Source of the DNA: an uncultured delta proteobacterium
Lineage (GTDB): Bacteria > Desulfobacterota > Binatia > UBA9968
DNA: 64,000 nucleotides
Direction of reading: 5' to 3'
NCBI GenBank assembly: GCA_963727625.1
Contig: CAVSHR010000007.1
Span: forward strand, 32,001-96,000
In this document: positions 21,091 through 60,470 of the stretch, piece after piece
How the letters are laid out: each line of letters opens with the position of its first letter
Position numbering within the stretch: the first letter of the stretch is position 1
Translations under genes and position numbers: made by a program
Notes under the pieces: model-generated
What the model saw: only the letters and a program-made list of their open reading frames with translations
Told to the model about the DNA's origin: nothing
Database searches by the model: none

Positions 21091-21339
21091 TTACCCACCC
21101 TTTGTTTTCTCCTGAACATAGGTAATGACATCTTGAACCGTAACAAAGTGCACTTCACCTTCGGGCATTTCAATATTGAATTCTTCTTCGATCCTGAAAA
21201 TGAGATCCAAGGTATCCAGCGAGTCCAACATCAGATCTTCGATGAGTCTGGATTCCTTTTGAATCTCACTGGGTTGTTTTTTTAAGGTCTTTGCCAGACC
21301 CGTGATAATCCGTTCTTCAACCGAAACACCCGATGCCAT
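21091..21339 (-). CDS. acpP: Acyl carrier protein
   Basis: DLMLDSLD phosphopantetheine motif, IEEEFNIE, TVQD. Confidence 0.9.
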   Translation of the reverse strand: MASGVSVEERIITGLAKTLKKQPSEIQKESRLIEDLMLDSLDTLDLIFRIEEEFNIEMPEGEVHFVTVQDVITYVQEKTKGG

Positions 21340-21351
21340 TTTTCCCTCGCC

Positions 21352-22599
21352 CTAAGAAAACGCCTTCATAACCAAACAAGAGTTATTGCCGCCAAACCCG
21401 AAGGAATTGGACAGGGCGACCTTCACATCTCTCTGACGCGCTTGATTCGGAGTGTAGTCCAAATCACATTCCGGATCGGGTTCTTCATAATTGATGGTCG
21501 GATGAATGACATTGCGTCGAAGAGTCAGTGCGCAAACAATCCCCTCGATTGCCCCGGCGGCGCCGATGGTATGTCCTATCATCGATTTGGTCGAGTCCAA
21601 CGAAATCCGGTAGGCATGTTCACCAAATATCTTCTTTATCGCCCTGGTTTCAACCAGATCGTTCAGGATAGTAGAGGTCCCGTGGGTGTTGATATAATCA
21701 ACCTGGTCGGGGGATATCCCGGCATCCTGGAGAGCCAGCTCGATCACGCGAGCCGCCTCACTCCCCGTACCCTCAGGGTGGACAATATGAGTTGCTTCAG
21801 AGGTTGCCCCGTAACCTACGACTTCGGCATAGGGGGTGACCCCCCTCTCCTTCGCGCGTTCTAATGTTTCCAAGACGATGATCCCGGCTCCCTCTCCCAT
21901 AGCGAAGCCGTCCCGTTTTTTATCGAAAGGCCGACTCGCTCGATGCGGAGCTTCGTTCCGAATGGAAAGCGCCCGAAGGGAACAAAAAGCGGCAAGCACC
22001 CCGGGTAAGATACACGCCTCCGTTCCTCCTGCGATGAAAAAGTCGGCCCTCCCCATCCGAATAAGATCGAATCCATAGCCGATGGTATGGGACCCGGACG
22101 AACACGCGGTTGAAACAGTCATATTAGGACCTTTCAACCCAAATGCAATCGCAACCCCTGCTGCAGCGGCATTTGACATGATTAAGGGAACCGACCAAGG
22201 ATGAACTCGACGCGGGTTATTGGTTTCGAACAAAGTTCGTAACTGCGCTTCATAAATGTCCATCCCACCTAACCCGGTCCCTATAGCAACTCCGACTCGG
22301 CAGGTATTTTCCTTAGAGAAATCGAGGTGAGCATCGTCAATCGCCATTTTTGCCGCGGCTCTTGCGAACTGGGTGTTTCTTGACAGTTTAGGGACCTCCG
22401 AAGACGGGATGTAATCTTCCGGCCTAAAATCTGAGATCTCCCCAGCGAATTGACACGAATAAGAAGTAGCGTCAAAACTCTGGATACGCCGGATACCCGA
22501 TTTCCCCTCAAGCAGAGCCGACCAAAAGGTTTCTTTCCCTAACCCGATGGAAGAAACAACTCCTAGGCCGGTGATCACAACCCTACGACTTGTCATCAA
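21352..22599 (-). CDS. fabF: Beta-ketoacyl-ACP synthase II
   Basis: TACSS, HGTST and KSMIGH (C-H-H triad); SNSFGFGG. Confidence 0.95.
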   Translation of the reverse strand: MMTSRRVVITGLGVVSSIGLGKETFWSALLEGKSGIRRIQSFDATSYSCQFAGEISDFRPEDYIPSSEVPKLSRNTQFARAAAKMAIDDAHLDFSKENTCRVGVAIGTGLGGMDIYEAQLRTLFETNNPRRVHPWSVPLIMSNAAAAGVAIAFGLKGPNMTVSTACSSGSHTIGYGFDLIRMGRADFFIAGGTEACILPGVLAAFCSLRALSIRNEAPHRASRPFDKKRDGFAMGEGAGIIVLETLERAKERGVTPYAEVVGYGATSEATHIVHPEGTGSEAARVIELALQDAGISPDQVDYINTHGTSTILNDLVETRAIKKIFGEHAYRISLDSTKSMIGHTIGAAGAIEGIVCALTLRRNVIHPTINYEEPDPECDLDYTPNQARQRDVKVALSNSFGFGGNNSCLVMKAFS

Positions 22600-22836: not shown

Positions 22837-23601
22837 ATGCGGTGGCAAAAAAGAGGTGTGGCACTATGCGTCGGGCTGGCACTGCTGAGCTTGGGTCAAA
22901 TGGCCCATGCGGCAGACGATCAACGAGCGCGAGAGATCGTGGACCGGGTCGCTGGGCTTTCCACCAGCAAATCCAGCATCGCTACGGTGGAAATGCAGGT
23001 CACCAACGAAAACTGGCAACGTGATATCACGGTTCAGATCTGGTCGCTCGGAGAGGATAAGATCCGCGTCCGCATTAGCAGCCCTCGGGAAGATGCGGGC
23101 ACGGGCGTCCTGAAAGTTGGCAGCGACATCTGGTACTATCTGCCGAAGGCGGATCGCACGGTTAAGATGCCGCCTGCGATGACGATGACCTCGTGGATGG
23201 GAAGTCACTTCACGCTCGACGATCTGGTGAAAGCGAGTCACCTCACTCGCGATTATTTTGCCGCCCTCTCTTTTGAGGGCGAGAGAAACGGAGTCGGGGT
23301 CTATGAAATCACCCTCACGCCCAAGCCGGACGCGGTGGTCGTGTGGGGGAAGATCTTGCTGGAGGTCCGACGGGCTGACTACATGCCTATCTGGCAGCGT
23401 TACTACGACGAGGACGGGAAGCTGGTCCGGGAGCTGACCTTTTCCGACTACAAAACTATGAACGGGAGGCTCATCCCTACGCGCCTGGTCATGCGACCCC
23501 TGGACAGGCCTGGTGAGCAGACCACGATCGTCTACAAAAATATCCTCTTCGACGTGCCGATCAGCGAGGAGATGTTTTCCCTGAAAAATCTGAAGCGATG
23601 A
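22837..23601 (+). CDS. Outer-membrane lipoprotein-sorting (LolA-like) periplasmic protein
   Basis: Signal peptide; SP.ED.GTG.LK, W.YLP and SWMGSHFTLDD motifs. Confidence 0.85.
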   Translation: MRWQKRGVALCVGLALLSLGQMAHAADDQRAREIVDRVAGLSTSKSSIATVEMQVTNENWQRDITVQIWSLGEDKIRVRISSPREDAGTGVLKVGSDIWYYLPKADRTVKMPPAMTMTSWMGSHFTLDDLVKASHLTRDYFAALSFEGERNGVGVYEITLTPKPDAVVVWGKILLEVRRADYMPIWQRYYDEDGKLVRELTFSDYKTMNGRLIPTRLVMRPLDRPGEQTTIVYKNILFDVPISEEMFSLKNLKR

Positions 23602-24854
23602 TTGGACGGATTCTCGGGCTCGCCTGGCGCAATCTGTGGCGCAATCCCCGGCGCACGTTAATCGCCATGGCTGCCATCGGCTTCGGCTATGCCATGCTGC
23701 TGTTCGTCGCGTGCCTCATGGCGGGATTGCGCCAGCAGATGATCGAGACCGGCACGTCCCTTGTTCTTTCTGATATCGAGGTGCACGCTCCGGGTTACTA
23801 CCCCAACCGTTCCATTTATCAGACCCTGGGAGGCCGACAAGGGACCGATGTCGGCGCGTTGCTTGCCGCCATCGCTGCCGACCCCCGGGTTGATGCTGCT
23901 TCTCCCCGGGTGTACGGCTACGGCTTGGTAAGCGCTACCCATCAATCTGCCGGGGCGGAGATTCTCGGTGTCGTTCCCGATCAGGAACAAAAGGTTACTG
24001 TACTGCAAACTCGAATAGTAAAAGGCACCTATCTCACCGAACGGATGCCAAAGGGTATCGTGATGGGAGATAAATTCGCCACCACGATCGGCGTCGGGGT
24101 AGGCTCGGAAATCATCCTGTTAACGCAGGCCGCCGATGGTTCGATGGGAAATGATCTGTACACGATTGTGGGGACCTTTCACACGGGTCTTGATGCCATA
24201 GACCGGGGTCTGGTGCTCATGTCGCTCTCTTCCCTACAGGAGCTTTTGCGATTGCCGCCTGCAAGGATCCATGAAGTTGGTATCAAGCTCCATGCCATAA
24301 CCGAGGCGACAACGGTGGCGGCGGCACTTGGCGCCCAACTGGGTAAAACCCTACCGGTTAGGGTGCGGGCCTGGCCTGAGCTGGTGCCGGAGCTAGCCGA
24401 TTACGTGCAGTTTAATCGCGGTGTCACTTTTATTCTGTTTTTCATTTTTTTCCTGCTAGCGGTCATTGGCATCGTGAACACGATGCTCATGGCAGTCATC
24501 GAGCGCACGCGCGAGCTGGGCATGTTGATGGCCGTGGGAATGCGCCCGGTTCAGGTGGTTGGTCTGATCGTGGCAGAGGCGGCGGGTCTGGCAGCGGCCA
24601 GTCTGGTTTTGGGGGGAGCGATCGGGGCTCCGCTCCTCTGGTATTTGCAGGTTTATGGTCTCGACTTAGGCGGCGCCGCAGGCGATGTCTCGGTGGCCGG
24701 AGTCGTGGTGGGCCACCACTGGTTCGGTCAGCAAGATTTTCCGGCATACAGTCAGGCCGCTCTCGGCCTGGCCGTCACCGCACTTTTGTCCGCCCTCTAC
24801 CCCGCGTTGCGGGCGGCTCGCTTTCGGCCGACGGAAGCGCTCCGAAAGGTCTAG
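23598..24854 (+). CDS. ABC transporter permease, MacB/FtsX/LolC-E type
   Basis: LAWRNLWRNPRRT, NTMLMAVIERTRELG, YPALRAAR. Confidence 0.9.
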   Translation: MIGRILGLAWRNLWRNPRRTLIAMAAIGFGYAMLLFVACLMAGLRQQMIETGTSLVLSDIEVHAPGYYPNRSIYQTLGGRQGTDVGALLAAIAADPRVDAASPRVYGYGLVSATHQSAGAEILGVVPDQEQKVTVLQTRIVKGTYLTERMPKGIVMGDKFATTIGVGVGSEIILLTQAADGSMGNDLYTIVGTFHTGLDAIDRGLVLMSLSSLQELLRLPPARIHEVGIKLHAITEATTVAAALGAQLGKTLPVRVRAWPELVPELADYVQFNRGVTFILFFIFFLLAVIGIVNTMLMAVIERTRELGMLMAVGMRPVQVVGLIVAEAAGLAAASLVLGGAIGAPLLWYLQVYGLDLGGAAGDVSVAGVVVGHHWFGQQDFPAYSQAALGLAVTALLSALYPALRAARFRPTEALRKV

Positions 24855-24856
24855 CG

Positions 24857-26146
24857 ATGACGGCTGTTCTCGTTCTGGTGAAAATCGGCTGGCGCAATCT
24901 CTGGCGCAATCCCCGAGGTACATTGCTGACCGCGCTGGCTTTGGGCTTGGGTCTTACCTTGCTGCTGATCTCCTTGGGCTTGCTCGACGGCAGCCATGAG
25001 CAAATGATTCGTGAGGGGGTGCGACTCGGCACCGGGCATGTCGTCATCCAGGCGCAGGGGTATCAAGACACCGGCTCCCAGGAGCTGTTGCTACCGGCCC
25101 CGGTTGTATCCATGACTGAGGAGTTTTTGCATACCGAGGCCATGAAGCCTGTTCTGCGCGGCGTGAGTCCCCGGCTTCTGGCCTCCGGCTTGCTCAGTTC
25201 CGCAGCCAACGCTGATGGCGTGAGCATGATGGGAGTCATCCCCAAAGAGGAGCGGGCCGTATCTCTGATTCCCGAGCGCATGGTCGAGGGGACCTATCTC
25301 AACGACGACAAACATTCTGACGTTGTCATTGGCACCGAGTTGGCCCGCAAGCTCGAGGTAAAGATCGGCGCCAAACTAGTGCTCATGACTCAGGCTGTGC
25401 AACAGCCCGGCGTCGACGCTGCGGACGCGGTTGGAGAAGGAATGCAGAGCACTCTTCTGCGGGTGAGCGGGATCTTTCGTACCGGAATACAGGCGGTCGA
25501 TAGCCACGTCATCCAGTTGCCGTTGCCTGTGGCGCAAACACTGCTCGGGGTGCCAGGCCGGGTGACTCAGGTAGCTGTGCTTCTCGAACGGGAGGGTGAC
25601 TCGCCGATGGTGGCAACAGGTTTGCGAAAGCAGTTGGCGGGAGTTCCGGTTGAAGTCCTTCCCTGGCGGGAAGCCATGCCGACACTGGTTCAGATCTTTC
25701 GGCTGAATTCGGTGTTTAATTATGTCATGAACGGTGTGGTGCTCGCGATGGTGGGGTTGGGGATACTCAATACGATTCTCATGCGAGTACTCGAGCGCCG
25801 CTACGAATTTGGTCTTTGTACGGCTCTTGGCCTTCGTCCTCTGCAGCTTGGAGTAATGATCATTGGCGAATCTCTGGCTCTCACGGCGATCAGCCTCGCC
25901 CTGGGTTTGGTGCTGGGTTTGAGTGTCCATTATTTTTTTGCGACCCATGGGTTGGATATGCGCTGGGTCTTTAAAAGCGACCTTCCCGCGGCTCTCGTTT
26001 TTGACCCTATCATCTACTCGCGCTTGAGCCCGTGGCGAATCACTTCATCCGTCGGCATCGTATTTCTGACCGCGACAGTCATATCGTTTTATCCGGCGCT
26101 CAAGGCAGCGCGAACCGAGCTGCCCGGTGCATTGAAAGTGTTTTAG
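24857..26146 (+). CDS. ABC transporter permease, MacB/FtsX/LolC-E type
   Basis: WRNLWRNPR, NTILMRVLERRYEFG, YPALKAAR. Confidence 0.9.
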   Translation: MTAVLVLVKIGWRNLWRNPRGTLLTALALGLGLTLLLISLGLLDGSHEQMIREGVRLGTGHVVIQAQGYQDTGSQELLLPAPVVSMTEEFLHTEAMKPVLRGVSPRLLASGLLSSAANADGVSMMGVIPKEERAVSLIPERMVEGTYLNDDKHSDVVIGTELARKLEVKIGAKLVLMTQAVQQPGVDAADAVGEGMQSTLLRVSGIFRTGIQAVDSHVIQLPLPVAQTLLGVPGRVTQVAVLLEREGDSPMVATGLRKQLAGVPVEVLPWREAMPTLVQIFRLNSVFNYVMNGVVLAMVGLGILNTILMRVLERRYEFGLCTALGLRPLQLGVMIIGESLALTAISLALGLVLGLSVHYFFATHGLDMRWVFKSDLPAALVFDPIIYSRLSPWRITSSVGIVFLTATVISFYPALKAARTELPGALKVF

Positions 26147-26227: not shown

Positions 26228-27007
26228 GTGCAGAGCATGGAAGAAAAAGCTGCGGTTGAAAGTCATGCGGCCGAGCATGGAGCGGCGAGCGCTGTGGGTA
26301 AGTGTGCGGTGGAACTGAAGAACGTGAAAAAGACCTACCGCACGGGGCCCATCGAGGTCCCGGCGCTGCGCGGGGTAAGTCTACAGATTGCTCCCGGGGA
26401 ATTTCTCGCGATTGCGGGTCCTTCCGGTTCAGGGAAAACCACGTTGCTCAATATCATTGGCGGACTCGACCGAGCGGACAGTGGAGAAGTGTGGGTGGAA
26501 GGAAACAACCTGCAGCTCTTATCTTCAGGGGAGCTCGCTCGTATGCGGCTCGAGCGCCTGGGTTTCGTTTTCCAAGCTTACAACCTGCTGCCGGTGCTGA
26601 CGGCCATCGAGAACGCCGAGTTCACCCTGCTCCTGCAAGGGATCCCGGTGGAGAAGCGTCGAGAAACGGTGCAAAAACTATTTTTGGAAATCGGTCTCGC
26701 CGGTCTTGAAAATCGTCGTCCCGCGGAGTTATCCGGCGGGCAACAGCAGCGGGTTGCCGTGGCTCGGGCTATGGTCACCGAACCTGTGCTGATCCTGGCC
26801 GACGAGCCGACGGCGAATCTTGACTCTGCCACCGCTTTGTCTCTCCTCGATGTGATGGAAAAGCTCAATCGTGATCACGGTACGACATTCGTCTTTTCCA
26901 CCCATGATCCTCAAGTCATGGAGCGGTCTCGCCGGTGGATTCGCTTGCACGACGGTCAGATCGCCAGTGATGCGGCGCATGCAAGCAACATTCTACTACC
27001 GCCCTAA
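26228..27007 (+). CDS. ABC ATP-binding protein, LolD-like
   Basis: [24 protein letters not shown] and TH motifs; the start may be ATG 26237. Confidence 0.92.
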
Positions 27008-27084: not shown

Positions 27085-27540
27085 ATGGCAAGACTCGCCC
27101 TGAAACAACGAGCCCGACAGATTTGGCAAAAGCTGTCGCACCTCGATGCCACACCGGACCAAATCGCTGCGGGCTTCTCGATCGGCATCTTCGCCAGTTT
27201 CCTGCCGCTTAATCCATCGCCAACAATCACGGCGATCGTTGCGGCGTGGCTGCTGAAGCGGAACGTGATCGCCGCTGTCGCCGGGGCGGCGGCTTCGATT
27301 CTCTATCTGCCGCTTTTGCCGTTGATATGGCTGGCTGAATATCGATTGGGGGAGTGGATTCTCCCGCTGCAGCATCCACCAGTGACGTTTGATCAGCCGC
27401 GACTGTGGGAGGTTTTGCAAAAGGGGTGGGATGTCTATGCAGCAATGCTTGTTGGATCGCTCATCATCGCGACCCCTATCACATTACTAACCTATTTCAT
27501 CATCAAGCGGCTTGCCACGAAATGGGCGCGGCAACGGTGA
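27085..27540 (+). CDS. DUF2062-family membrane protein
   Basis: ATPDQIAAGFSIGIFASFLP and EYRLG motifs. Confidence 0.8.
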   Translation: MARLALKQRARQIWQKLSHLDATPDQIAAGFSIGIFASFLPLNPSPTITAIVAAWLLKRNVIAAVAGAAASILYLPLLPLIWLAEYRLGEWILPLQHPPVTFDQPRLWEVLQKGWDVYAAMLVGSLIIATPITLLTYFIIKRLATKWARQR

Positions 27541-27602: not shown

Positions 27603-28235
27603 TCAATTACTGTGGCGAGGCGCGTTGGCTTTGATCCACTCGGCGATTTCGCCAATCAGCCGATTGACCGCATGATTGCTGGCGATGACGGCGCCGTAGG
27701 CGTCGCCGCTGGGTGCTTCTTCGATTATCTCGAATCGACGAGCGGCGATCACTTCCCGTTTCTGGCTCTCAACCAGCTGCGCGCGAAAGGACAGTCGCAC
27801 CCGGCTGGGATTGGAAAAAAACTCCTGTTGCCACTGTAGAATTTCACTGTCCAAGCGAAAATCATCGCGCACGGCGGCAGTGGTGTGCGTCACGGTACTC
27901 CAGCAATTGGTCTTTTCCACGGCTTGAACCATCAGCGGCAGTAACAGCCGAGCCGGAGTCTCGGCCCACTGGTTGTACGCGTAGTATCGGATCTCATGCG
28001 GCCGCAGCAGATAGGCGATACCGCTGGTGTTAGTGCCGCCCTGCTCTTGGGGCAGACTGACCACGAGCACGCCGAGAGGCGATGCGCATGACGGCCATTT
28101 GCCTGCGGAGAAGTCGGGTGTGAAAAGGTAACTATGCACCGGCTGGTTCGGTGCCTCCGGAAAAATCGTGCACCCGGCCATAAGGTGAAACAACACGGCT
28201 AGAAAAACGCCGTTGTTTGTTCGCTTACGTTGCAT
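27603..28235 (-). CDS. ABC transport auxiliary lipoprotein (PqiC-like)
   Basis: Lipobox MAGC; YYAYNQWAETPARLL; follows mlaD. Start uncertain (28235 or 28247). Confidence 0.8.
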   Translation of the reverse strand: MQRKRTNNGVFLAVLFHLMAGCTIFPEAPNQPVHSYLFTPDFSAGKWPSCASPLGVLVVSLPQEQGGTNTSGIAYLLRPHEIRYYAYNQWAETPARLLLPLMVQAVEKTNCWSTVTHTTAAVRDDFRLDSEILQWQQEFFSNPSRVRLSFRAQLVESQKREVIAARRFEIIEEAPSGDAYGAVIASNHAVNRLIGEIAEWIKANAPRHSN

Positions 28236-28239
28236 GCGT

Positions 28240-29142
28240 TCACTCACCCGGTCCCGGCTCCCGGCGGCGTCCGAACAACAGCGACCTGGGATTCTGTTCA
28301 ACCTGTTGGGACAGACCCTGCAGACTCTCGGTCAGCCGCCGGAGTTCCGCGATCAATAAACCGGCTTCGGAAAGAGTTTGGTGGACGTCCTGTTGACTCC
28401 CGGCGACCAACGAATCGACGCTTTTGCCGGTAAGGGCAATTTGCTGCGCCATATTTTCCAAAGCGGCGGCGGTTTCCGTGGCGCGGAAAAACAACGCAGG
28501 CAGTTTTGCAGTCGCTTCTCGGGTATTCGCCAGTGTACTGTCTGCGTTCGAAAAGAGTTTGTCCAGCTCCTTCTCGCGTTGTTTCAGAGCCCCCGTCAGC
28601 TCCGCCAAATTGACCATGGTTTTCCTGATCGATGCGCGGCTCTCTTTATCGGTAAGGTCCTTGAGGGACGAGGCGATCTCATTCAGGCTGGTCATTAGCG
28701 TGGAGGCGGCCTGATCCAGAGGCAATGAGGGTTTAATCTTGATCACCGGATAGCGCTGTCCGGGGGCAGGGGTGAGCGGCGGCGACTCAAGGCCTCCACC
28801 GGCCAGCTCGATAAAAGCGAGTCCCGTAAGCGCCTGAGGCGCCACGCTGGCGACGGTGTCTTCCTTGATCGGCGTGCCCTCGGCGATGTCGAGGATCAGG
28901 CGAACTCTTTCGGGGTTCCCGGGATCGAGGCGCATGTTTCTAACCCTGCCGACGTTGATCCCCTTATACCTCACTGCCGAGTCTTCGGTGACACCCGCCA
29001 CCGATTCGCCGGAATAGGCGTAATAGCTCCGATAGTTTCTTTGCGGCCCGCCGCGCACCAACCACAGGACGATGACGATGAGACCGGCGGTGAATAGGGC
29101 GACGCAGGCGCCGACCAACACATAACTTACTTTCGGTTCCAT
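28240..29142 (-). CDS. mlaD: MCE/MlaD family protein with long helical extension
   Basis: TM anchor; SVAGV..DSAVRYKGINVGRV MCE motif; C-terminal NPRSLLFG. Confidence 0.88.
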   Translation of the reverse strand: MEPKVSYVLVGACVALFTAGLIVIVLWLVRGGPQRNYRSYYAYSGESVAGVTEDSAVRYKGINVGRVRNMRLDPGNPERVRLILDIAEGTPIKEDTVASVAPQALTGLAFIELAGGGLESPPLTPAPGQRYPVIKIKPSLPLDQAASTLMTSLNEIASSLKDLTDKESRASIRKTMVNLAELTGALKQREKELDKLFSNADSTLANTREATAKLPALFFRATETAAALENMAQQIALTGKSVDSLVAGSQQDVHQTLSEAGLLIAELRRLTESLQGLSQQVEQNPRSLLFGRRREPGPGE

Positions 29143-29921
29143 GCTTGCTCCCTAGCGGCCCGTCCGCGTGAGCCCTGAAAATATTCCGCGACCAGGGGGT
29201 GGTCAGAGTGCGACAGCTCGTCCATGGTGCCGACCTGCAAAAGTTTGCCGTCACCCAATACCCCGACGCGGCCGGCGACGTTCCAAAGTGAATCCAGATC
29301 ATGGGTCACCATGACGATCGTCAGTCCGAGAATGGATTTCAGCTGGCGAATCAAGTCGTCCAACGCGGCGGTGCTTGCCGGGTCCAAGCCGGCGGTCGGC
29401 TCATCGAGGAACACCAACTCGGGGTCCAGCGCGATGGCCCGCGCCAGGGCAGCGCGCTTGAGCATCCCGCCGCTCAGCTGGTTCGGATATTTTCCCGCGC
29501 TATTGGCCGGCAACCTCACCCAGTGAAGCTTAATCCCGACGATCTCCCGGGTGAATTCGGCGCTCAGCTTCGTATGCTCGTGAAGCGGTACCGCGATGTT
29601 TTCCGCCACCGTGAGCGCGCTGAACAAAGCCCCATGCTGAAACAATACGCCGAGGCGGCAGCGCAGCTCTATCGATTCGCGCTCGCCGATGGCCGAAAGG
29701 TCTTTTCCCAACACGTGAATCGATCCCGCCTCCGGCCGGTGCAGCATTATCATCTCCTGGAGCAGGGTCGATTTGCCGCCGCCGCTGGCGCCGACGATCG
29801 CGAAGATTTCCCCGCGCCGCACCGTGAAGCTGATGTCGTCATGGATCACCGCACTGCCAAACCTTGTGGTCAAGTGGCGAACCTCGATGACCGGCTCCGG
29901 AATCTTGTCTTCGAGACTCAT
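29127..29921 (-). CDS. mlaF: MlaF/Mkl-like ABC ATPase
   Basis: GASGGGKST, LSGGM, DEPTAGLDP; ATGA overlap with the mlaE stop. Confidence 0.9.
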   Translation of the reverse strand: MSLEDKIPEPVIEVRHLTTRFGSAVIHDDISFTVRRGEIFAIVGASGGGKSTLLQEMIMLHRPEAGSIHVLGKDLSAIGERESIELRCRLGVLFQHGALFSALTVAENIAVPLHEHTKLSAEFTREIVGIKLHWVRLPANSAGKYPNQLSGGMLKRAALARAIALDPELVFLDEPTAGLDPASTAALDDLIRQLKSILGLTIVMVTHDLDSLWNVAGRVGVLGDGKLLQVGTMDELSHSDHPLVAEYFQGSRGRAAREQAWNRK

Positions 29922-32162: not shown

Positions 32163-32380
32163 TTGTCTTCCTGCTTTTCCATTTTCTTCCTCAGGCTAAG
32201 CGGCCTCATGTCGGTCCACACTTCTTTGATGTAGGCCAAGCATTCCGTCTCAGAGCCGCGCTTGCCTGTATCCTTCCAGCCAAGAGGATTCTCGCGGTCG
32301 ACACGCCAGATCGAGTACTGCTCTTCGTGGTTCACGACGACATTGAAGATTGTCCGGTCTTCCTTATCGTCCGTATTCAT
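32159..32380 (-). CDS. MbtH-like protein
   Basis: [12 protein letters not shown]...PLGW...[17 protein letters not shown]; ATGA overlaps on both sides. Confidence 0.95.
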
Positions 32381-50698: not shown

Positions 50699-51054
50699 TC
50701 AGTCGGGCTTTAGTCCGATTGTTCATTCGAGCAAGAAATGACTCGACTGAAGCTAATGAAATCTATCGTTACTTCGGAAAATTCTTTGGTGCAGTGGTGC
50801 GGCGCTCTAATCGTCGTACCGAACTTGGCCAAAATTTCTCGGTAGTCTACTGCTATCCGTGGGTTTGGGGCAAGGGTGAGCCTGGAGGATAAGGATAAAG
50901 GCGAAAGGATAAAAACAAGCGCGAGGCGGAAGGCGAGGACTGGAAAGCGGGAGCGGTATGAAAGGTTAAGGCAATAGGACCTTCGGAGGGATAAGGGATT
51001 AAAGATTTCCTAGTTCACTCCTAATCCGACATGTACACTTTCGCCGCGCTTTTC

Positions 51055-52641: not shown

Positions 52642-55600
52642 TCATTAACTTTCTCATCAGCTAACATATCGGTGAGCAATGAATCCACGTTCTCATCCGA
52701 AAGCTGATCAAGGTTTGCCAACAGCTGTTCGGCATTTCCCTTGTCGATGTGCTCCTGTTGCGATGTGACAGCCGGGGCAAGAGGCGGCGACGGGCTGGAG
52801 CCCTCTGCTGTCAGTTGATCGAGCACCTGTGTTACCGCCTCGTCGACGCTAAAACCCTGAAGAAATTTGACCACCGGAACTTTCACCCCCAAGTCAATCG
52901 CGATCCGGTTTCTCAGTTCGACGGCCATCAGCGAATCCAATCCCAGATTACTAAGCGGTTGCTGCAAGTCCAGTTTAGCTGCGGCAAGCCCGAGCACACG
53001 AGCCACTTGCGCGCTCAGGTAGGACTGCAATAACTCGTGGCGCTCGCCTGGCTCCGCAGCTAGGAGGGCAGCGGAGGTCAGCCCACTTTTTTCTCCCGGA
53101 CGGTCCGTTTGCTGTCGGACCTCGGCTTCCTCAATTGCAAGTTGAGACAGTAGGGGCGGTTCGCTGCCCGCCGGGTAAGACTCGCGGTACTGCTGCCAGT
53201 CGACGGGCACCGCCACGACCTGGATTGCGCCTTGCCCGAGCAGACGTTGCAGCACTTCCAGCGCTTGCTCGGGCGCCATGCTGGTGATTCCCAGAATCGC
53301 AAGGCGCGCGGCGAGGCGCTTCCCCCCAGGCGTATCGGCGAAACCCAGATTGCCCCAAGCGCCCCAGTTGATCGTCAAGGCCGGCTGGCCTTGAGCTCTC
53401 CGGTGATGCGCCAGAGCATCCAGGAAAGCATTGGCGGCGGCATAATTCCCCTGGCCAGCCTGGCCCAAGAGGGAACCCGCTGAAGAGAAGAGCACGAAGA
53501 AATCCAGGGGGGCGTCCTCAAGCAGATGATGCAGCAGCCACCCACCCACCATCTTGGGCTGCAAAACCGTATGCAGTTGGGCGGTATCGAGCTGCACCAG
53601 CAGTCCGTCCTGTATCACTCCCGCCGCGTGCACGACACCGCGGATCGGCGGCCAACCCTCACGGCGAAACTCGTCGAGAAAGCCGCTCAACTGTGCTTCA
53701 TCCGCCACATCCACCGACGCCAGATGCACCGACGCTCCCGAGGCTTCCAGTTCCTGAATGGCAGCGACCTGCCGGGCCAAGCGACCGCCTGTTTCCAGCG
53801 AGCTCCAACTCGAGCGTGGAGGAAGTTTCGTGCGTCCCAAAAGGATCAAGCGCCGTGCCCCTTGCTCGACCATCCAGCGGGCGACCGAGAGGCCGAGCTC
53901 TCCCAGTCCGCCGCTGATGAGATAGCTGCCGTCGGAGCGCCACCTGATCTGACGTTCCCGGCTCGCAGATCGGCGCTTGCGCACTAAACGGGCCACGTAG
54001 CGCCGCCCTTTACGGAACGCCAGTTGATCCTCGCCAGCGGGAGTGGAGATTTCATCGCACAACTGCTGAGCCGTAGTATCTCGCGGCGATGCCGTCGGAT
54101 CGAGATCCACAAGTCCGCCCCACAGTGTAGGGAGTTCTTGAGCAATGACGCGACCCAATCCCCAAAGAGGCGACTGAGCTACGGCCAGCGGCGCGGGCTC
54201 TTCCCCTGCCGCTTGAGCACCACGCGTAGTTAGCCAGAGCCGGGGGAGATCGCGCGATTCCGTTCGCGCCAGTTCCTGGACCAACAGGAGGACACTGCCG
54301 CAGCCCAGAGTCTGGGCTGCATTCAGAGAGGCCGCGGTGGTCTCCTGTGGGCGAGGAGCATCAAGACTCCAGAGATGGACAATCCCACGGCAGACTGGCT
54401 GATCAGATTCCAGTGCCGCCTCGACAAGCCGCCGGAGGTCTTCCGGTTTTTCTGGGCGGATGCGAAAATGCACACCGTCTATGTGCTCGTACGATTCCCC
54501 GCGAGAAACCAGAATGGTCCCTTGTCCCTGTGCTTCCAGCAACGCTGCCAGCCCCTCTCCCACGCCGCCATTGTCGGTAAAGATCAGCCAGCTCCCCCGA
54601 CTGGCCGGCGAGGAAGTTTCCGCAGCTACTTGTCCTTCGACGCGTTCTTTGGGCTGCCACTGAAACTCATAGAGCCAGTCGTCGAGATCCGTCTCAACAG
54701 CGCGCTGTGGGTCGTCGCCCAGATATTCGAAGCGAAGTCCGAGAATCTCGACAGCCACGCGCTCAGCTTCATCGAGGAGCCGCACTTCTCCCGTTACTGT
54801 ATCAGCGTCGCGTTCTTGGACATGGGCGTTACTCCAGAGATGCAGGCCGGGACGACCGCAGACCCGGAGCTGATCTATGCGGGTCGGCATGAAAATACCT
54901 TGTTTGCCGTTTTGAGTTGCTTCGGCGGCTACCGCTGCTCCCATAATCTGTAAGCCGGCGTCCAGAACCGCCGGGTGGATTCGGTAGGCGTTAAATTCTG
55001 TATCCGACCCGTCTGGAACCTTGACTTCACCCAGCACCTCTCCATTGTTTCGCCACAACTGTGCGATGCTCTGGTAAAAGGGACCGTAGTCGATACCGCT
55101 TTCGCGGAGTCTCAGATAATAGTCCTGGCCGGAGACTTTCTCCGAGCATCGACTTTGGATCTCTGCGAGCGTCTCCCTGCCAGAAACAGGGAAAGTGCTG
55201 TTATCCTCTAGAGGACAGGCGTTCCCGGTCGCATGCAGCGTCCACGATTTACTGGCGTGGTCTCCCGGGCGGCTGTAAATGTGAAAAGACGCCCCTCCAT
55301 CGGTGCCGGGAGAAAGGATAACCTGAATCGTGTGGGGTTTGTCCTCAGGTAAAAAAAGCGCCCTGGCAAATTCTACATCCTTCAACGCAAAGGATTGTTC
55401 GCCGAAGACCTCAACGGCGGCGGCCAGGGCCATCTCCAGATAGGCCGAGGCGGGCAGCACGGCAACCCCTTGGATGCGATGGTCGTCCAGATATGGCAGG
55501 GCTCGCTTGTCCAAAGTGAATTCCCAGAAGTGGCTTCCTGCGGGATGGGCCGACGTGAAGTGGTGGCCGAGAAGAGGGTGAGTCCCAATTGCGCTCCGCG

Positions 55601-58600
55601 CAGTTTGCTCCCAGTGAGAGTAGGTTTCTCCTGGTGCGGTCTCCAGCCAGCAACGCTCTCGCTGCCAAGGGTAGACCGGCAGTCGAACGCACCGGCCTCC
55701 GGCCGGATAGAGCCGGCGCCAGTCCACCGGGTACCCCAGAGTATAAAGCGCGCCAAGCGATCCCAGCATGACGGTGCGTTCGTCTTCTTCACGCCGCAGA
55801 GAAGGGAGCACGGCGCCTTCTTGGCCGAGGTTATGAAACCCTTGCTGGATAGAGCTGAGTAAAATGGGGTGGGCGCTGATTTCCAAGAAAATGTCATGTC
55901 CATCTTCCAGCAACTGCTGAACCGCCGTTGAAAACAGCACCGGCTCTCTCAGATTCCGCGCCCAATAGGGCGCCTCGAACTCCAGCCCGTTGCTGACCGT
56001 GCCGGTCACCGTCGAGTAGATGGGTACGGACGCAGGTCGAGGCTCGAGTCCTTCCAATGCTTGCAACAACTCAGCGCGCAAGGGATCCATCTGCGGACTG
56101 TGAGAGGCAAAATCCACCTTCACCATTCGACAGAAGGTATCCTGGCGCTGCAATTGATCCACGATTGCTTGGAGCGCTGCCGGATCTCCGGACAACACAG
56201 TCGAGGTGGGACCGTTGCTGACAGCAATGGACACGCGATCTTCGTAACCGACCAGGACATGGCGAGCCGCCTCCATGGAAAGTTCCACAGCAGCCATTAA
56301 ACCTTGCCCGATGGTGCGCTTGACCAAGCGGCTGCGACGACAAATAACCCGTGCCGCATCATCAAGGCTGAGCGCGCCGGCGACATAGGCTGCCGCGACC
56401 TCTCCCATGCTATGGCCCACCACGGCCTGTGGTTCGATACCCCAGGAACGCCACAGGCCTGCCAGAGCGACTTGAATCGCAAAGAGGGCCGGCTGGATGA
56501 TATCGATTTCGTTCAACCGGGACTGTGCTGCATCGGTGGCAGTGAGCTCGGCGAGCAAAGACCAGTCCCCGTGCGGTCGCATCGCCCGGTCACAGCGCTC
56601 CACGACCTCTCGAAAAACAGCTTCCTGCTGCAAAAGTTTTCGCCCCATGCCAAACCATTGGGACCCTTGCCCGGGAAACACAAAAACCAGTTTTCTCTTG
56701 CGACCTGAAATCTTAGGACCGGAAGACAGACCGGGACGAGCCTCGCCCCGCAAAAAAGCGTCCAGGAGCTCGCTCAGTTGCTCCGGAGAATTGCCGGTCG
56801 CGGCGAGACGGTAGTCGTGGTGGCTGCGCCGCACGCTGGCGCTGTAGCAGATGTCGTGCAGCGATGCCGTGGACGCCGGAGCTGCCAGGGAGTTTTGGTA
56901 AGCTCGCGCGAGAGAGTGGAGAGCCTCCGGGCTACGGGCCGACAGTGGTAATAAGTGTGCGGATTCCGAATCGCCGATTTTCCATTCCGTATTTTGCATT
57001 GGTAAATCGGACTGGGGCGCTTCTTCCAGAACCACATGGGCATTGGTTCCGCCAAAACCGAATGAACTCACCCCAGCCAAGGCTGGACCCGAGTGTGTAG
57101 GCCAAGGGCCCAGGGTTGTCTGCACTCGGAGAGAGAGCTCGTCGAAAGGAATATGCGGGTTGGGCTCCTGAAAGTGCAGGCTCGGTGGGATCTCCTGATG
57201 ATTGAGCGCCAGCGCCACCTTGATCAAGCCGGCAACGCCGGCTGCGGCCTCGAGGTGACCTAGGTTGGTTTTGACCGAGCCCAGGGCACAAGGTTGCTCA
57301 GGGGGACGGTCGATGGCGAGTACTGTGCCCAAGGCTTTCGCCTCGATGGGATCGCCTAAGAACGTGCCCGTGCCGTGGGCCTCGACGTATTGAACCTGGC
57401 CGGGCGAAACTCCGGCACTCCGGTAGGCTTCTCGCAGGACAGCCTCTTGGGCCAACGGATTCGGAGCCATGAGTCCGTTGCTCCGTCCGTCCTGGTTCAC
57501 TGCGCTGCCGCGAATCACGGCATAAATCGGATCACCGTCGGCCAGGGCTCTCGATAAAGGCTTGAGAACGACGAGGCCGGCGCCCTCGCTGCGAACGTAG
57601 CCGTTGGCCCGGGCATCGAAGGCCTTGCAGCGCCCATCCGGAGCCATGGCTCCGGCTTTGGTAAAATTGATCGTAATCGCCGGCGAGAGGACCAGGTTCA
57701 CGCCCCCGGCCAGAGCGAGAGTGGACTCGCCGTTCCACAGACTGCAGCAGGCCAAGTGGACGGCAACGATCGACGACGAACAGGCAGTATCGATTGCTAT
57801 ACTCGGCCCGCGGAAATCAAACAGGTAAGAGATACGGTTGGCCGCGATGCTCATGGCATTGCCTGTGCCCGCGTAGGCATCGATACAGCTTAGATCACTG
57901 AACTGAATGCGGCTGTAATCGTTGGTCGAGATGCCGATAAACACACCCGTACGGCTGGCAGTCAGACGGTCCGGTGCCTGTCCGGCATCTTCCAATGCTT
58001 CCCAGGTCACTTCCAGTAAGAGGCGTTGCTGGGGGTCCATGCGCAAAGCCTCCCGAGGAGAGATGCCAAAGAAGTGGGGATCGAACTGATCCACCTGATC
58101 GAGGAAGCCGCCCCAGCGAGTGTTTATTTTGCCCGGTATCGCCGGGTCTGGATCGTAGAAGTCGTGAAGATTAAAGCGCTCCGCTGGAACTTCTGTGATG
58201 GCATCGACTCCCTCGCGCAGCAACTGCCAGAAAGCTTTCGGGCCGTGCGCGCCGGGAAACCGGCAGCCGATGCCGATAATGGCAATCGGTTCAGTTGTTG
58301 CCTCCCGGTTTTGGTCAGCGCGGGCGGTTGGCTCCGAGGCCTCCGGTGACTCTGCTAAATGGCGTGCGAGAGTCTCGATGGTTGGGTACTCGTAGGCCAG
58401 AGCAGGGGAGAGTTTTCGTCCAAGCCATTCTGCGAGTTCACCAGAAAGGCTGACCGCCTCCGTGGACCCCAGACCGTAGCTGGAGAAGGGCTCCCTGACA
58501 TCTATTTCGTGAGACTCGATTCCCAGCCGCTCCGAAAGTTTGGATACCAACCAGGCTTCAATGACTCCTGCGGTCGGAGAATCCATTGGTGAATTTCCCT

Positions 58601-58664
58601 CTTCGTCACGTTTGGTCCGATCGACACAGTTCAGTAACTCGCCGTTTGTAGACTTCCCGGCCAT
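52638..58664 (-). CDS. Type I PKS: ACP-KS-AT-DH-KR-ACP
   Basis: YGLGS ACP; KS DTACSSS/HGTGT/GHLE; AT GHSMG and FASH; DH HRIQGVAVLP; KR GGLGELG/YAAAN; ACP GLDSL; no ER or TE. Confidence 0.96.
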   Translation of the reverse strand: MAGKSTNGELLNCVDRTKRDEEGNSPMDSPTAGVIEAWLVSKLSERLGIESHEIDVREPFSSYGLGSTEAVSLSGELAEWLGRKLSPALAYEYPTIETLARHLAESPEASEPTARADQNREATTEPIAIIGIGCRFPGAHGPKAFWQLLREGVDAITEVPAERFNLHDFYDPDPAIPGKINTRWGGFLDQVDQFDPHFFGISPREALRMDPQQRLLLEVTWEALEDAGQAPDRLTASRTGVFIGISTNDYSRIQFSDLSCIDAYAGTGNAMSIAANRISYLFDFRGPSIAIDTACSSSIVAVHLACCSLWNGESTLALAGGVNLVLSPAITINFTKAGAMAPDGRCKAFDARANGYVRSEGAGLVVLKPLSRALADGDPIYAVIRGSAVNQDGRSNGLMAPNPLAQEAVLREAYRSAGVSPGQVQYVEAHGTGTFLGDPIEAKALGTVLAIDRPPEQPCALGSVKTNLGHLEAAAGVAGLIKVALALNHQEIPPSLHFQEPNPHIPFDELSLRVQTTLGPWPTHSGPALAGVSSFGFGGTNAHVVLEEAPQSDLPMQNTEWKIGDSESAHLLPLSARSPEALHSLARAYQNSLAAPASTASLHDICYSASVRRSHHDYRLAATGNSPEQLSELLDAFLRGEARPGLSSGPKISGRKRKLVFVFPGQGSQWFGMGRKLLQQEAVFREVVERCDRAMRPHGDWSLLAELTATDAAQSRLNEIDIIQPALFAIQVALAGLWRSWGIEPQAVVGHSMGEVAAAYVAGALSLDDAARVICRRSRLVKRTIGQGLMAAVELSMEAARHVLVGYEDRVSIAVSNGPTSTVLSGDPAALQAIVDQLQRQDTFCRMVKVDFASHSPQMDPLRAELLQALEGLEPRPASVPIYSTVTGTVSNGLEFEAPYWARNLREPVLFSTAVQQLLEDGHDIFLEISAHPILLSSIQQGFHNLGQEGAVLPSLRREEDERTVMLGSLGALYTLGYPVDWRRLYPAGGRCVRLPVYPWQRERCWLETAPGETYSHWEQTARSAIGTHPLLGHHFTSAHPAGSHFWEFTLDKRALPYLDDHRIQGVAVLPASAYLEMALAAAVEVFGEQSFALKDVEFARALFLPEDKPHTIQVILSPGTDGGASFHIYSRPGDHASKSWTLHATGNACPLEDNSTFPVSGRETLAEIQSRCSEKVSGQDYYLRLRESGIDYGPFYQSIAQLWRNNGEVLGEVKVPDGSDTEFNAYRIHPAVLDAGLQIMGAAVAAEATQNGKQGIFMPTRIDQLRVCGRPGLHLWSNAHVQERDADTVTGEVRLLDEAERVAVEILGLRFEYLGDDPQRAVETDLDDWLYEFQWQPKERVEGQVAAETSSPASRGSWLIFTDNGGVGEGLAALLEAQGQGTILVSRGESYEHIDGVHFRIRPEKPEDLRRLVEAALESDQPVCRGIVHLWSLDAPRPQETTAASLNAAQTLGCGSVLLLVQELARTESRDLPRLWLTTRGAQAAGEEPAPLAVAQSPLWGLGRVIAQELPTLWGGLVDLDPTASPRDTTAQQLCDEISTPAGEDQLAFRKGRRYVARLVRKRRSASRERQIRWRSDGSYLISGGLGELGLSVARWMVEQGARRLILLGRTKLPPRSSWSSLETGGRLARQVAAIQELEASGASVHLASVDVADEAQLSGFLDEFRREGWPPIRGVVHAAGVIQDGLLVQLDTAQLHTVLQPKMVGGWLLHHLLEDAPLDFFVLFSSAGSLLGQAGQGNYAAANAFLDALAHHRRAQGQPALTINWGAWGNLGFADTPGGKRLAARLAILGITSMAPEQALEVLQRLLGQGAIQVVAVPVDWQQYRESYPAGSEPPLLSQLAIEEAEVRQQTDRPGEKSGLTSAALLAAEPGERHELLQSYLSAQVARVLGLAAAKLDLQQPLSNLGLDSLMAVELRNRIAIDLGVKVPVVKFLQGFSVDEAVTQVLDQLTAEGSSPSPPLAPAVTSQQEHIDKGNAEQLLANLDQLSDENVDSLLTDMLADEKVNE

Positions 58665-58667
58665 CGC

Positions 58668-60470
58668 TTACTCCTCACCGCGCCGATCCAGGGTGCCGTC
58701 GAGAAAGCTGGCCTGGCAAGCACGGCGCTGAACCTTGCCGCTGGGAGTCTTCGGAATGCGCCCAGTCTTGAGTAGCACCACCTTGTACACTCGCACATCA
58801 TGCTCCTCTGCCACCGCTCGCCGAATAGACCGAACCACCGCCTCGACATCCAGCAGCGGACGCAGCTTCGGCTCAGAGCGCGCTTTCTGATCCTGCGGTT
58901 CGCGATCCGCCTGTTGGTAGCGGCGCTCTATCTCGGCTGCGACGATCAAGCGTTCTTCGTCGGCGACATCGACGGAGAACGCTGCGCAACAACCCGGCCG
59001 TATCGCCGGGTGACTCCGTTCCACCGTCAATTCAATGTCGTGGGGGTAAAGGTTACGGCCGCCGATGATGATCAGATCCTTCAGACGACCGGTGACATAC
59101 AGTTCGCCATCTTTTAAAAATCCCAAATCCTCGGTGCGGAGAAATGGTCCCTCGCCGGTATCGGCAAGGTAGGCACGGAAAGCACGCTCGGTTTCCTCAG
59201 GTCGGTTCCAGTAACCCTGAGCGACGCTCGGGCTTGACACCCAGATCTCGCCCACCTCGTCAGGGGCGCATCGGGTTAACGATTGCGGATCAACGATGAC
59301 AATCTTGGTGTCGAACTGAGCGCGTCCGCAGCCCACGAATGTCCGCACATTCGGTTGCTGCTCCAATGCCTCCACGACGCGATTCTTTTCAAGCGCGCCG
59401 GCCGGTGTGGTGCAGACAATCGGTTCATCTCTTAGAAGTCCGCCTGAAACTATCAGAGTGGCTTCGGCGAGTCCGTAACATGGGTAGGCGAAGCTTGGGC
59501 GGAACCCACAGGGGGCAAAAGACTCGGCGAACCGTTTCAAAGTATCCGCGCGGACCGGCTCCGCGCCGTTATAAGCCGCAACCCAACTGCTGAGATCGAG
59601 AGTTCCACGTTGCTCAGGAGTAATCCTGCGAGCGCACAGCTCGTAGGCGAAATTGGGGCCTCCACTGACCGTGGCTTGGTAGCGTGAAATAGCCTGGAGC
59701 CAGCGCACCGGCCACTGAAGAAAGGATTGGGGCGGCATGAGGAAACAGTGACCTCCCGTATACAGAGGTTGGATGATGCCGTTGCTAAGCCCCATATCGT
59801 GAAAGGCCGGTAACCATGTCACCGATACGCTGTCCGGTGTGAGCTCCAAAGCTTGGGTGAGATATGCCGAATTATGGAGAAGGTTGCCGTGACTGACCAT
59901 CACCCCCTTCGGCACCGCGGTGGAACCCGAAGTGTATTGGAGCAAGGCCAGCGTAGCGCTGCTCGCCGCAGGGTCTTGCCATTCGTGAGCCGGGCTGCTG
60001 GTAACCTTGTCGGTGGCCAACCAGCGCATTGCCTGTAGCTCTGGAGCCTGTGCGAACAGACGCTCACTCTTGGCGAGGATCGATGACGTGGTGAGTGCCA
60101 GCGATGGGCCGGCATCGTTCGTGATCGCAAGAAGCCTCGGGAGAGTCCGCTGCGGCTGGGCCAGATTGGGCGGGGGCAGAGGGACGGCAATGCCCCCGGC
60201 ATATAAGCAACCAAAAAAAGCGGCTATGAACTCGAAACCTGTTGGATAGAGCAACAGGGCACGCTGCCCGCTTGCGCCATAGCTTTGGAGCAATGCGCCA
60301 ATAGCCCGGGCTTGGCAGTCCAACGCCTCGTATGTCAGATGGGCCGCTGCTATTTCTCCATCGAGTAAATAAGTATAGGCGCGATGCTCGGGCTGCTGAA
60401 GCGCTCGCCGGCGAAGCATTTCGATGAGCGTAGACGACTTAACGATTGGATTAGCGGGGCCTCCGTTCAT
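58668..60470 (-). CDS. Fatty acyl-AMP ligase (FAAL)
   Basis: QYTSGST..PKGV, WLPAFHDMGL, PCYGLAEATL followed by the FAAL insertion, PKTPSGK; directly upstream of an ACP-initiated PKS. Confidence 0.93.
   Translation of the reverse strand: MNGGPANPIVKSSTLIEMLRRRALQQPEHRAYTYLLDGEIAAAHLTYEALDCQARAIGALLQSYGASGQRALLLYPTGFEFIAAFFGCLYAGGIAVPLPPPNLAQPQRTLPRLLAITNDAGPSLALTTSSILAKSERLFAQAPELQAMRWLATDKVTSSPAHEWQDPAASSATLALLQYTSGSTAVPKGVMVSHGNLLHNSAYLTQALELTPDSVSVTWLPAFHDMGLSNGIIQPLYTGGHCFLMPPQSFLQWPVRWLQAISRYQATVSGGPNFAYELCARRITPEQRGTLDLSSWVAAYNGAEPVRADTLKRFAESFAPCGFRPSFAYPCYGLAEATLIVSGGLLRDEPIVCTTPAGALEKNRVVEALEQQPNVRTFVGCGRAQFDTKIVIVDPQSLTRCAPDEVGEIWVSSPSVAQGYWNRPEETERAFRAYLADTGEGPFLRTEDLGFLKDGELYVTGRLKDLIIIGGRNLYPHDIELTVERSHPAIRPGCCAAFSVDVADEERLIVAAEIERRYQQADREPQDQKARSEPKLRPLLDVEAVVRSIRRAVAEEHDVRVYKVVLLKTGRIPKTPSGKVQRRACQASFLDGTLDRRGEE

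Follow-up and report, generated by a model that had tools for sequence, protein, structure and literature searches.

A widespread PKS-NRPS cluster family with a Lol-like export operon, seen in an interrupted copy from an uncultured delta proteobacterium

What does a lipopeptide assembly line make, and where does its product go, when its genes run toward an export operon that resembles the Lol system for lipoproteins? We analyze a locus that raises this question in a 64,000-nucleotide stretch of DNA from an uncultured delta proteobacterium (Binatia; UBA9968), namely positions 32,001 to 96,000 of contig CAVSHR010000007.1 in GenBank assembly GCA_963727625.1 (hereafter, we refer to this whole stretch as the window). 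The locus encodes a fatty acyl-AMP ligase (FAAL), a type I polyketide synthase (PKS), a free-standing condensation (C) enzyme and a nonribosomal peptide synthetase (NRPS) that opens with a histidine-less interface (I) domain. We lean towards the view that it is one copy, acquired by horizontal transfer, of a widespread and so far uncharacterised PKS-NRPS family that makes a small N-acyl dipeptide and carries its own Lol-like export. FAAL-PKS-NRPS lipopeptide clusters are a known kind, of which this cluster is a new form; its unusual conserved traits are the private Lol-like transport, a trans-acting C enzyme on an I domain that has no hydroxylase, and mobility across phyla at high identity.

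An earlier note on this DNA, made from the sequence alone, had recognised no characterised cluster with this layout. We likewise found none in the literature, although the layout is not unique, as the window holds one somewhat damaged copy of a very widespread family. Our literature searches (with MIBiG outside the comparison) returned no published description of the family or its product, nothing on LolA-like proteins together with NRPSs or on LolA together with both nonribosomal peptides and FAALs, and, for DUF2062, nothing on this family.

The assembly line and its predicted product

Pfam scans find every synthase part that the earlier note had claimed, intact and on the minus strand, and together with the motifs they confirm its order of FAAL, ACP-KS-AT-DH-KR-ACP, stand-alone C, (I)-A-T-C-A-T-TE, MbtH and type II thioesterase (TEII). 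The FAAL (58668-60470, 600 aa) matches Pfam AMP-binding at 3.5e-64 and the NCBIfam fatty-acid--AMP ligase models at E 1e-133, yet under their curated cut-offs, and its orthologs in related loci are 66-89% identical. The PKS (52638-58664, 2008 aa) matches the Pfam families PP-binding, KS, AT, DH, KR and PP-binding and carries the motifs DTACSS, HGTGT, GHSMG, FASH, HxxxGxxxxP (in the DH) and LGLDS, with the KR Asp conserved at the LDD position and the motifs of both ACPs in place. The free C enzyme (51055-52641, 528 aa; Pfam Condensation, 1.3e-105) has the active site HHIVVDF, and its nearest solved domains, from Txo1/Txo2 and TycC, are of the LCL type, not starter C domains. The NRPS (32377-39726, 2449 aa) reads I-A1-T1-C2-A2-T2-TE: Pfam gives two Condensation stretches, two AMP-binding, two PP-binding and one Thioesterase, with no third C-like stretch that could be an epimerase, and the active-site motifs are HHIVSDGWS in C2 and GWSMGG in the TE, with A-domain codes that end in K. 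MbtH (32159-32380, 73 aa; Pfam MbtH, 2.5e-21), whose start overlaps the NRPS stop, and TEII (31404-32162, 252 aa; Pfam Thioesterase, 2.5e-46) complete the set. The window thus has the parts of a hybrid FAAL/type I PKS/NRPS line, namely a catalytic C for each amide bond, the A-domain Lys, T domains and a GxSxG TE.

The genes are mostly translationally coupled, as had been claimed, with ATGA-type stop/start overlaps at PKS/C, NRPS/MbtH and MbtH/TEII (and at LolA/FtsX in the export operon) and a gap of 3 nt between FAAL and PKS by ORF coordinates. The reported absence of tailoring genes was upheld as well: Pfam scans of window ORFs of at least 100 aa found neither an ER nor an epimerase, a halogenase, a TonB receptor or any further tailoring family.

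This domain content agrees with the assembly logic proposed before, with FAAL loading, a single extension, and KR plus DH without ER. The FAAL would activate a fatty acid and load it on the first PKS ACP, and one round of extension, ketoreduction and dehydration would yield a 2-enoyl acyl-ACP. The alpha-branch that the note had put in parentheses gains from the AT motif: FASH is of the xASH type, which by established rules marks a branched extender, and it points to a 2-methyl group. At one related locus, in an alphaproteobacterial metagenome-assembled genome (MAG; L029, 5768-7979), genes for the large and B12-binding subunits of methylmalonyl-CoA mutase adjoin the cluster's stand-alone KS, which fits a methylmalonyl extender. 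The free C would then join the acyl chain to amino acid 1 on T1, C2 would attach amino acid 2, and the TE would release the product.

The adenylation pockets are nearly fixed in the family. The A1 code of the window, DARHMGVIDK, is shared by 12 of 21 genome relatives and by 39 of 47 I-type NRPSs. A second A1 type, DMKN[FI]GIANK, is found in 9/21 genome relatives; both A1 types are basic at position 239, where the window's A1 has Arg and its A2 has Glu. The A2 code is DVENIGAITK in the window and D[VL]ENIGAITK in 37 of the 47 I-type NRPSs. The main A1 code resembles those of Glu-activating domains, and the rare A1 alternatives are DLTK-type codes, the type for Asp/Asn. For A2, the sole PDB match to the pocket stretch at E<=1e-20 is ApnA A1, an Arg/Tyr-activating domain, with 6 of the 9 variable code positions identical. 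Judged by these pockets, amino acid 1 is most likely acidic or its amide (Glu-like) and amino acid 2 most likely basic (Arg-like), so that the earlier "acidic then basic" fits as a prediction, and the product is most likely an N-(2-methyl-2-enoyl) fatty-acyl-Glu-Arg-type dipeptide released by the TE. With a single chain, two carboxylates and one basic group, such a molecule would not be a zwitterionic bilayer lipid; a small zwitterionic, phosphorus-free lipid had been envisaged.

None of the three pocket codes (the two A1 types and A2) was found printed in the literature, including the signature-sequence paper PMC12283262. The corallorazine lipodipeptides were considered as a match and rejected, as the text of the paper is without FAAL, thioesterase or transporter. 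A one-module variant (L126, and L125), FAAL-PKS-free C-I-A-T-TE-MbtH followed by ABC-FtsX-FtsX-LolA, would by its domains yield an N-acyl amino acid instead of a dipeptide. Within the window's NRPS, residues 850-1011 (the C-terminal part of A1 and the start of T1) and residues 1922-2083 of module 2 are identical over 162 aa and at 480/486 nt, and a 47-aa block near the start of both A domains is likewise identical. As the likeness of the two modules is also present in the family consensus, they appear to evolve in concert.

The export operon and the cluster family

The second half of the system lies on the plus strand, convergent with the synthase genes. It consists of a secreted LolA_like protein with a signal peptide (22837-23601; Pfam), two FtsX/MacB_PCD permeases (23598-24854 and 24857-26146; Pfam and NCBIfam), a LolD-like ATPase (26228-27007; Pfam and NCBIfam) and a DUF2062 membrane protein (27085-27540; Pfam). 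Two permeases, one ATPase and a periplasmic carrier of the LolA fold make up a Lol layout, and the cluster contains neither a membrane-fusion or TolC-type gene (Pfam) nor a LolB-like gene.

The linkage of this block to the synthases, which the earlier note had proposed and had regarded as refutable if the two never co-occurred, holds in four phylum-level groups. We scored the 28 genome loci whose sequence covers the TE domain and continues past it for at least 3.5 kb, and a DUF2062 or ATP-binding cassette (ABC) transporter gene is present in 24 of them. The LolA-like gene stands at the far end of the operon in all five genomes checked (from four groups); a sixth copy, in genome G045, sits beside a remnant FAAL, MbtH and TEII, and all six copies adjoin synthase genes. 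In the alphaproteobacterial genome G042, FAAL, PKS, LolA and FtsX are consecutive on one strand.

The family itself is large. Among 8000 scored sequences, at least 1122 are homologs of the free C at E<=1e-50, the best 120 of them 67-92% identical. A scan of species-representative genomes gave 41 loci, all in MAGs labelled Verrucomicrobiota, Acidobacteriota, Alphaproteobacteria or "delta proteobacterium", and 38 of the 41 have a C ortholog of at least 60% identity; soil and wetland metagenomes also contain near relatives of the cluster. Protein identity within the family is 60-90% across genome and metagenome loci. Gene maps of the relatives, made by tblastn with the window proteins, give the order FAAL-PKS-[C-A-T-C-A-T-TE]-TEII-phosphopantetheinyl transferase (PPTase), then a convergent DUF2062-ABC-FtsX-FtsX-LolA. 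At 20 of the 41 genome loci, C and NRPS share a single open frame of >1,900 aa; at two (L011, L012), the C is free, as it is in the window. In the 28 scored loci, TEII is present in 26, PPTase in 23 and MbtH in 3.

Within the window's own genus, the cluster is foreign. Neither the free C nor the LolA-like gene (the latter even at E<=1e-20) was found in any of the 30 other species of the genus, the unpublished G005 included. Ordinary flanking genes are ~70% identical within the genus, whereas the window cluster is 80-91% identical to the copies in G044 and G090, neither of which is among those 30 species. We therefore infer that the whole unit arrived by horizontal transfer. Synteny does not set the ends of the acquired segment, since the GlgP-like and GH65 genes of the flank are not neighbours in five genomes of the same genus, and the window has no tRNA and no Rfam match. 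A fragment of a DDE_3 (IS630-type) transposase (20133-20675) lies just outside the FabF end of the cluster and may mark the border of the acquired segment.

The closest relative, L013 in G044, has two NRPSs in tandem, I-A-T-C-A-T-TE-MbtH and then C-A-T-C-A-T-TE-MbtH, together with a free C. By their domains, the pair could turn one acyl chain into two lipodipeptides. Of the two NRPSs, the window has just the first. G045 (L140/L141, C2) carries a second, decayed cluster, in which the LolA-like, ABC, TEII, MbtH and FAAL genes are left and the PKS, the NRPS and both permeases are lost. Relatives often have a multi-BON protein (L085, L116, L022, L054, L058), a Crp/FNR-type regulator (L076, L099, L055) or a secreted protein of ~320 aa without a Pfam family (L036, L038, L062, L085, L103) near the cluster, and an LPG_synthase_TM protein and DUF748 also occur there; all of these neighbours recur loosely. 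None of these genes is in the window.

Two further elements by the cluster belong to its sub-lineage and not to the family. The Mla/MCE operon (27603-31087, minus strand; Pfam) encodes a STAS-MlaE protein, an MlaF-like ATPase, an MlaD/MCE protein and an ABC_trans_aux lipoprotein, the last with a lipobox. MlaE is above the TIGR00056 cut-off (253 vs 212), and MlaF and MlaD are under their equivalog cut-offs (MlaD and ABC_tran being assigned by Pfam). The block is 82-88% identical to one beside the G044 cluster, where MlaE is divergent from FAAL. Apart from the window, a matching MlaE (86-88%) adjoins the cluster at just two loci, L011 (G044) and L092, which makes 1 of 38 genome and 1 of 80 metagenome loci, and the rest of the genus has Mla paralogs only, at <=54% identity. 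Thus, the MCE linkage, read earlier as a feature of the cluster, is no family trait, and the block rides with this sub-lineage's version. The extra FabF-type ketosynthase (21352-22599, minus strand; NCBIfam fabF equivalog, 557.6 vs a cut-off of 493.75) is 87% identical to a KS at the same place in G044, while three other FabF-like genes in the genome are at 42-52%; it, too, seems to travel with that version.

The interface domain and the free condensation enzyme

The I domain (38317-39726, minus strand) forms the N-terminus of the NRPS and has the fold of a C domain, with SSLCADAAS in place of HHxxxDG, which makes the label "(I)" in the earlier note correct. It aligns over its full length with C domains of McyB (E 1e-37) and Txo1 (E 2e-35). 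The second His of HHxxxDG is missing in 120/120 of its best homologs, whose common motif is [PS][AS]LCAD, and 47 of these 120 are I-A-T-C-A-T-TE proteins of ~2,400 aa like the NRPS of the window. Identity to the N-terminal domains of TauD-bearing cyanobacterial NRPSs is 42-52%. Lacking the histidines, the I domain should not itself be able to catalyse the condensation of the acyl chain with amino acid 1. Why, then, is it kept?

Gene order in metagenomes bears on this question. With a free C of 549 aa as the seed, a scan there retrieved 80 loci. A free C followed by an I-domain NRPS occurs in 44 and a C fused to A, without an I domain, in 18; one locus has a free C and no I domain in the available 2.7 kb, and the rest are cut by contig ends (16) or too distant (1). 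The gap between free C and I-domain NRPS is -44 to +26 nt in 41 of the 44 loci and 404-543 nt in the other three, so the abutting pair is a standard variant within the family. The window has the same order, with the free C upstream and the I domain opening the NRPS.

The free form of the enzyme also has a part of its own. Its C-terminal tail (residues 490-528) is restricted to free C enzymes, matches to fused forms ending near residue 489, and R494, N501, L505, K509 and R510 in the tail are conserved in 41-44 of 44 free C sequences. We modelled the complex of I domain and free C from alignments of 32 and 44 sequences, respectively, in three runs with three controls. The median score of the three runs is 0.70, versus 0.01 for the best control; a score of 0.70 is attained by 58 of 80 solved complexes and by 2 of 110 mismatched pairs. 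Contacts agree between runs to at least 82%, partner pLDDT is at least 82, and tail residues 490-519 lie against I-domain residues 6-13, 180-206, 292-294 and 334-337. The model supports binding of the free C tail to the I domain and fits an inactive I domain that keeps only a docking role, as a landing pad for the tail. The modelled interface resembles the known docking of a donor helix on a C-domain "hand" between NRPS subunits.

Reitz et al. (2019) reportedly described I domains in the NRPSs of beta-hydroxy-aspartate siderophores. Shared with those are a C fold without catalytic histidines, a place as the first domain of an NRPS downstream of a protein whose final domain is a C, and TauD-bearing NRPSs among the homologs. 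Unlike those systems, the window has no partner hydroxylase and no siderophore uptake genes, and the docking partner appears from the model to be the C enzyme itself.

A close published comparison is myxoglucamide (PMC13638107). There, MxgA (FAAL-ACP-C-Ox) ends in a live C and an oxygenase, MxgB opens with I-A(Glu)-PCP, and in vitro the C alone was enough and the I domain dispensable. Both systems have a FAAL-loaded acyl chain, a live LCL-type C outside the acceptor NRPS, a histidine-less I domain at the NRPS N-terminus and an acidic first residue (predicted for the window). In the window, by contrast, the C is a separate protein with a docking tail and a full PKS module before it, and there is no oxygenase domain or gene and no sugar or later PKS part; it adds two residues, releases by TE and has a Lol-like export operon attached.

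An inserted island, rival readings and the destination of the product

The window's C/NRPS pair is interrupted. The "de-interrupted" cluster to which the earlier note alluded is split by a decayed defence island of 11,344 nt (39735-51078; PADLOC and Pfam), whose borders are given by a soil-metagenome contig (X1, 2259 nt). In X1, 39165-39734 (570 nt, 27 differences) runs straight into 51079-52767 (1689 nt, 46 differences), which identifies the island as an insertion, and the C stop and NRPS start overlap there as in the standard form. The island sits exactly at this overlap and also replaced the final few codons of the C gene. It holds a DrmD-like SNF2 helicase in two pieces (47848-50698), a weakly matching Y1 (IS200-like)-transposase-like remnant (47115-47834) with REP-like hairpins (47370-47561), a type III Mod in two pieces (45319-46945; profile positions 1-238 and 339-559), a nucleotidyltransferase/HEPN pair (44527-45296), pieces of a type III Res (41665-42078 and 42786-44255; profile positions 2-392 and 730-863 of 871) and a DUF1828 (PDC-M24B) protein (39952-40734). 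Mod, Res and helicase are all broken. No convincing terminal direct or inverted repeats were found at the island ends. The Y1-like stretch has only two further matches in the genome of the window, of ~115 nt each; its very high depth as a Y1/REP bin and the many variable joints in X2, a wetland dataset, suggest that the repeat is widespread in that metagenome.

The same junction is occupied by other DNA elsewhere: 873 nt in a wetland contig from X2, 5.4 kb with a PIN toxin and DUF1206 in G090 (L012), and ~18 kb with the BREX-type genes DUF6079, methylase and PglZ in G044 (L011/L013); L073 is also listed in the set of insertion sites. The spacers of the window and L012 have only their first 75 nt and last 121 nt in common. 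Given such different cargo at one 4-nt overlap, the C/I-NRPS junction is a recurrent landing site for unrelated defence cargo, which is a curiosity of genome dynamics within a biosynthetic operon. The split between free C and I-NRPS predates the insertions and was not caused by them.

Where would the product go? We propose that the LolCDE-like ABC transporter extracts it from the inner membrane and hands it to the secreted LolA-like protein, a handover that would take it to the cell envelope or surface and not through a TolC-type channel. A LolCDE-like layout with a secreted LolA_like protein and without adaptor or TolC-type gene speaks for this route, as do product-determining residues that are near-invariant across phyla. 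Known systems offer parallels on either side. In mycobacterial glycopeptidolipids, FAAL, PKS, NRPS and MbtH make an envelope lipopeptide that has its own transporters, as proposed here, although these are of the MmpL/Gap kind, the product is a tetrapeptide with sugars and the hosts are actinobacteria. Pseudomonas-type cyclic lipopeptide clusters also join an NRPS lipopeptide to an FtsX-family ABC exporter; they differ in having a starter C, no FAAL or PKS, and long peptides, and their MacB is fused and comes with a MacA adaptor, without any LolA-like protein. Aryl-polyene clusters (PMC8253772) are widespread and horizontally spread, and send an acyl product to the outer membrane by a dedicated route with a cluster-encoded LolA-like chaperone and transporter. 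They use type II FAS-like enzymes, an RND transporter and a LolB-like protein, whereas the window has a modular PKS-NRPS, a LolCDE-like ABC transporter and no LolB-like gene.

Several points weigh against our reading of a lipodipeptide with Lol-like export, and some of them lead to rival explanations. The substrate calls were made from pocket likeness alone, and a PDB search with the A1 pocket stretch gave only unrelated solved A domains. Part of the score of the docking model may be likeness to donor-helix/C-domain docking, in which case the model may echo a known interface. The permeases and ATPase are far under the equivalog cut-offs (98-124 bits vs 362 for lolCE, 222 vs 308 for LolD) and the LolA-like protein has no NCBIfam match, so by sequence the transporter would be Lol-like at most, and not a housekeeping Lol system. 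Four of the 28 genome loci (L018, L027, L034, L036) show no transporter, the sequence ending or an insert lying there, and the operon is seen in 5 of the 8 metagenome loci that reach 3 kb past the TE and missing from the other 3. With only one chain, a lipodipeptide is an amphiphile akin to a detergent and does not count as a bilayer lipid. This surfactant-like character of the predicted product also suits an antibiotic or biosurfactant made by the same assembly line and secreted, with the FtsX-type ABC transporter as a MacB-like efflux or self-protection pump and the LolA-like protein as a periplasmic accessory, an explanation that we take seriously without favoring it. A patchy distribution (0/30 in the genus) is what one expects of accessory secondary metabolism, as are the TEII, MbtH and PPTase, and in a MIBiG-based survey (PMC7849407), MacB-FtsX pumps occur in 7 of 27 Gram-negative antibacterial/antifungal clusters and in no other class, and are also noted in Acidobacteria clusters. 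A secreted product sits less well with a cluster that has no membrane-fusion or outer-membrane-factor gene, with a transporter in the LolCDE/LolA arrangement (permeases as two distinct proteins, an ATPase apart from them and a secreted LolA_like protein), with specificity codes almost fixed across phyla, or with the envelope genes that recur nearby (BON, Mla, LPG_synthase_TM, DUF748). We give a slight preference to the envelope or surface over simple secretion, with no computation here deciding; of the two linkages from which the earlier note had suggested "a cell-envelope lipid rather than a secreted" compound, the Lol-like one holds in the family and the MCE one is confined to the sub-lineage.

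The I domain raises a different alternative, that it recruits a beta-hydroxylase encoded elsewhere, as in the beta-hydroxy-Asp siderophores and glidomide, making residue 1 beta-hydroxylated and the product a possible metal chelator. The I-domain literature (PMC13638107) does tie the domain to alpha-ketoglutarate (alpha-KG) hydroxylases, and 38 of the 120 best I-domain homologs are in NRPSs of ~2,900 aa with a TauD domain (the named ones cyanobacterial). We consider this highly improbable: the window has no TauD (alpha-KG/Fe(II) hydroxylase) gene, the one TauD gene that the genome has, on a different contig, is flanked by neither an NRPS nor a PKS in the ~8 kb to each side, free C and I-NRPS abut without an intervening gene in 41 of 44 metagenome loci, and Pfam finds no TonB receptor or siderophore uptake gene in the window. 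That the cluster is, in this genome, a decaying relic and no longer productive concerns only this copy, and we think it unlikely, although the copy may work poorly. With 11.3 kb between them, its C and NRPS genes are no longer coupled, the PPTase gene that follows TEII in 23 of 28 relatives is missing, and A1 carries a 22-residue insert between core motifs (NRPS residues 583-604, ~37915-37980) that is seen in at most 1 of 31 relatives. The second NRPS of G044 and the BON, Crp and secreted 320-aa genes are absent, an IS630-type fragment lies at the left border, and G045 does contain a clearly decayed second copy. All core frames (600, 2008, 528, 2449, 73 and 252 aa) are nevertheless open with intact catalytic motifs, another Sfp-type PPTase gene (41% identity) is present elsewhere in the genome, G044 and G090 keep intact genes around larger and smaller inserts at the same site, and the island is itself decayed and hence not recent. 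Contigs from RNA library X19 match the FAAL, the PKS, the C and the NRPS start; DNA may have been present in that library, and such contigs cannot show transcription.

Our reading of the window as an acquired copy of a lipodipeptide family with Lol-like export can be carried further, to a picture that is possible and, taken as a whole, rather doubtful: uncultured soil bacteria would make a lipopeptide for their outer membrane or surface and sort it with a dedicated LolCDE/LolA-like machine. This lipopeptide would be the first NRPS-made cargo of a Lol-type system that is not a lipoprotein and a Gram-negative counterpart of the mycobacterial glycopeptidolipids, moving between phyla as one unit, with the I domain re-used to dock a trans-acting C instead of a hydroxylase. 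The pair of free C and I domain without a hydroxylase is a natural experiment on the role of I domains, a question left by the 2026 myxoglucamide work. The synthases are firmly paired with a LolA-like/LolCDE-like set, which allows one to test directly for Lol-type transport of lipids other than lipoproteins, and with ~20 kb of synthases and a 5 kb transporter, the system is a tractable target. As a strongly conserved pathway (65-90% protein identity) in uncultured bacteria of soils, bogs and wetlands, it likely matters ecologically.

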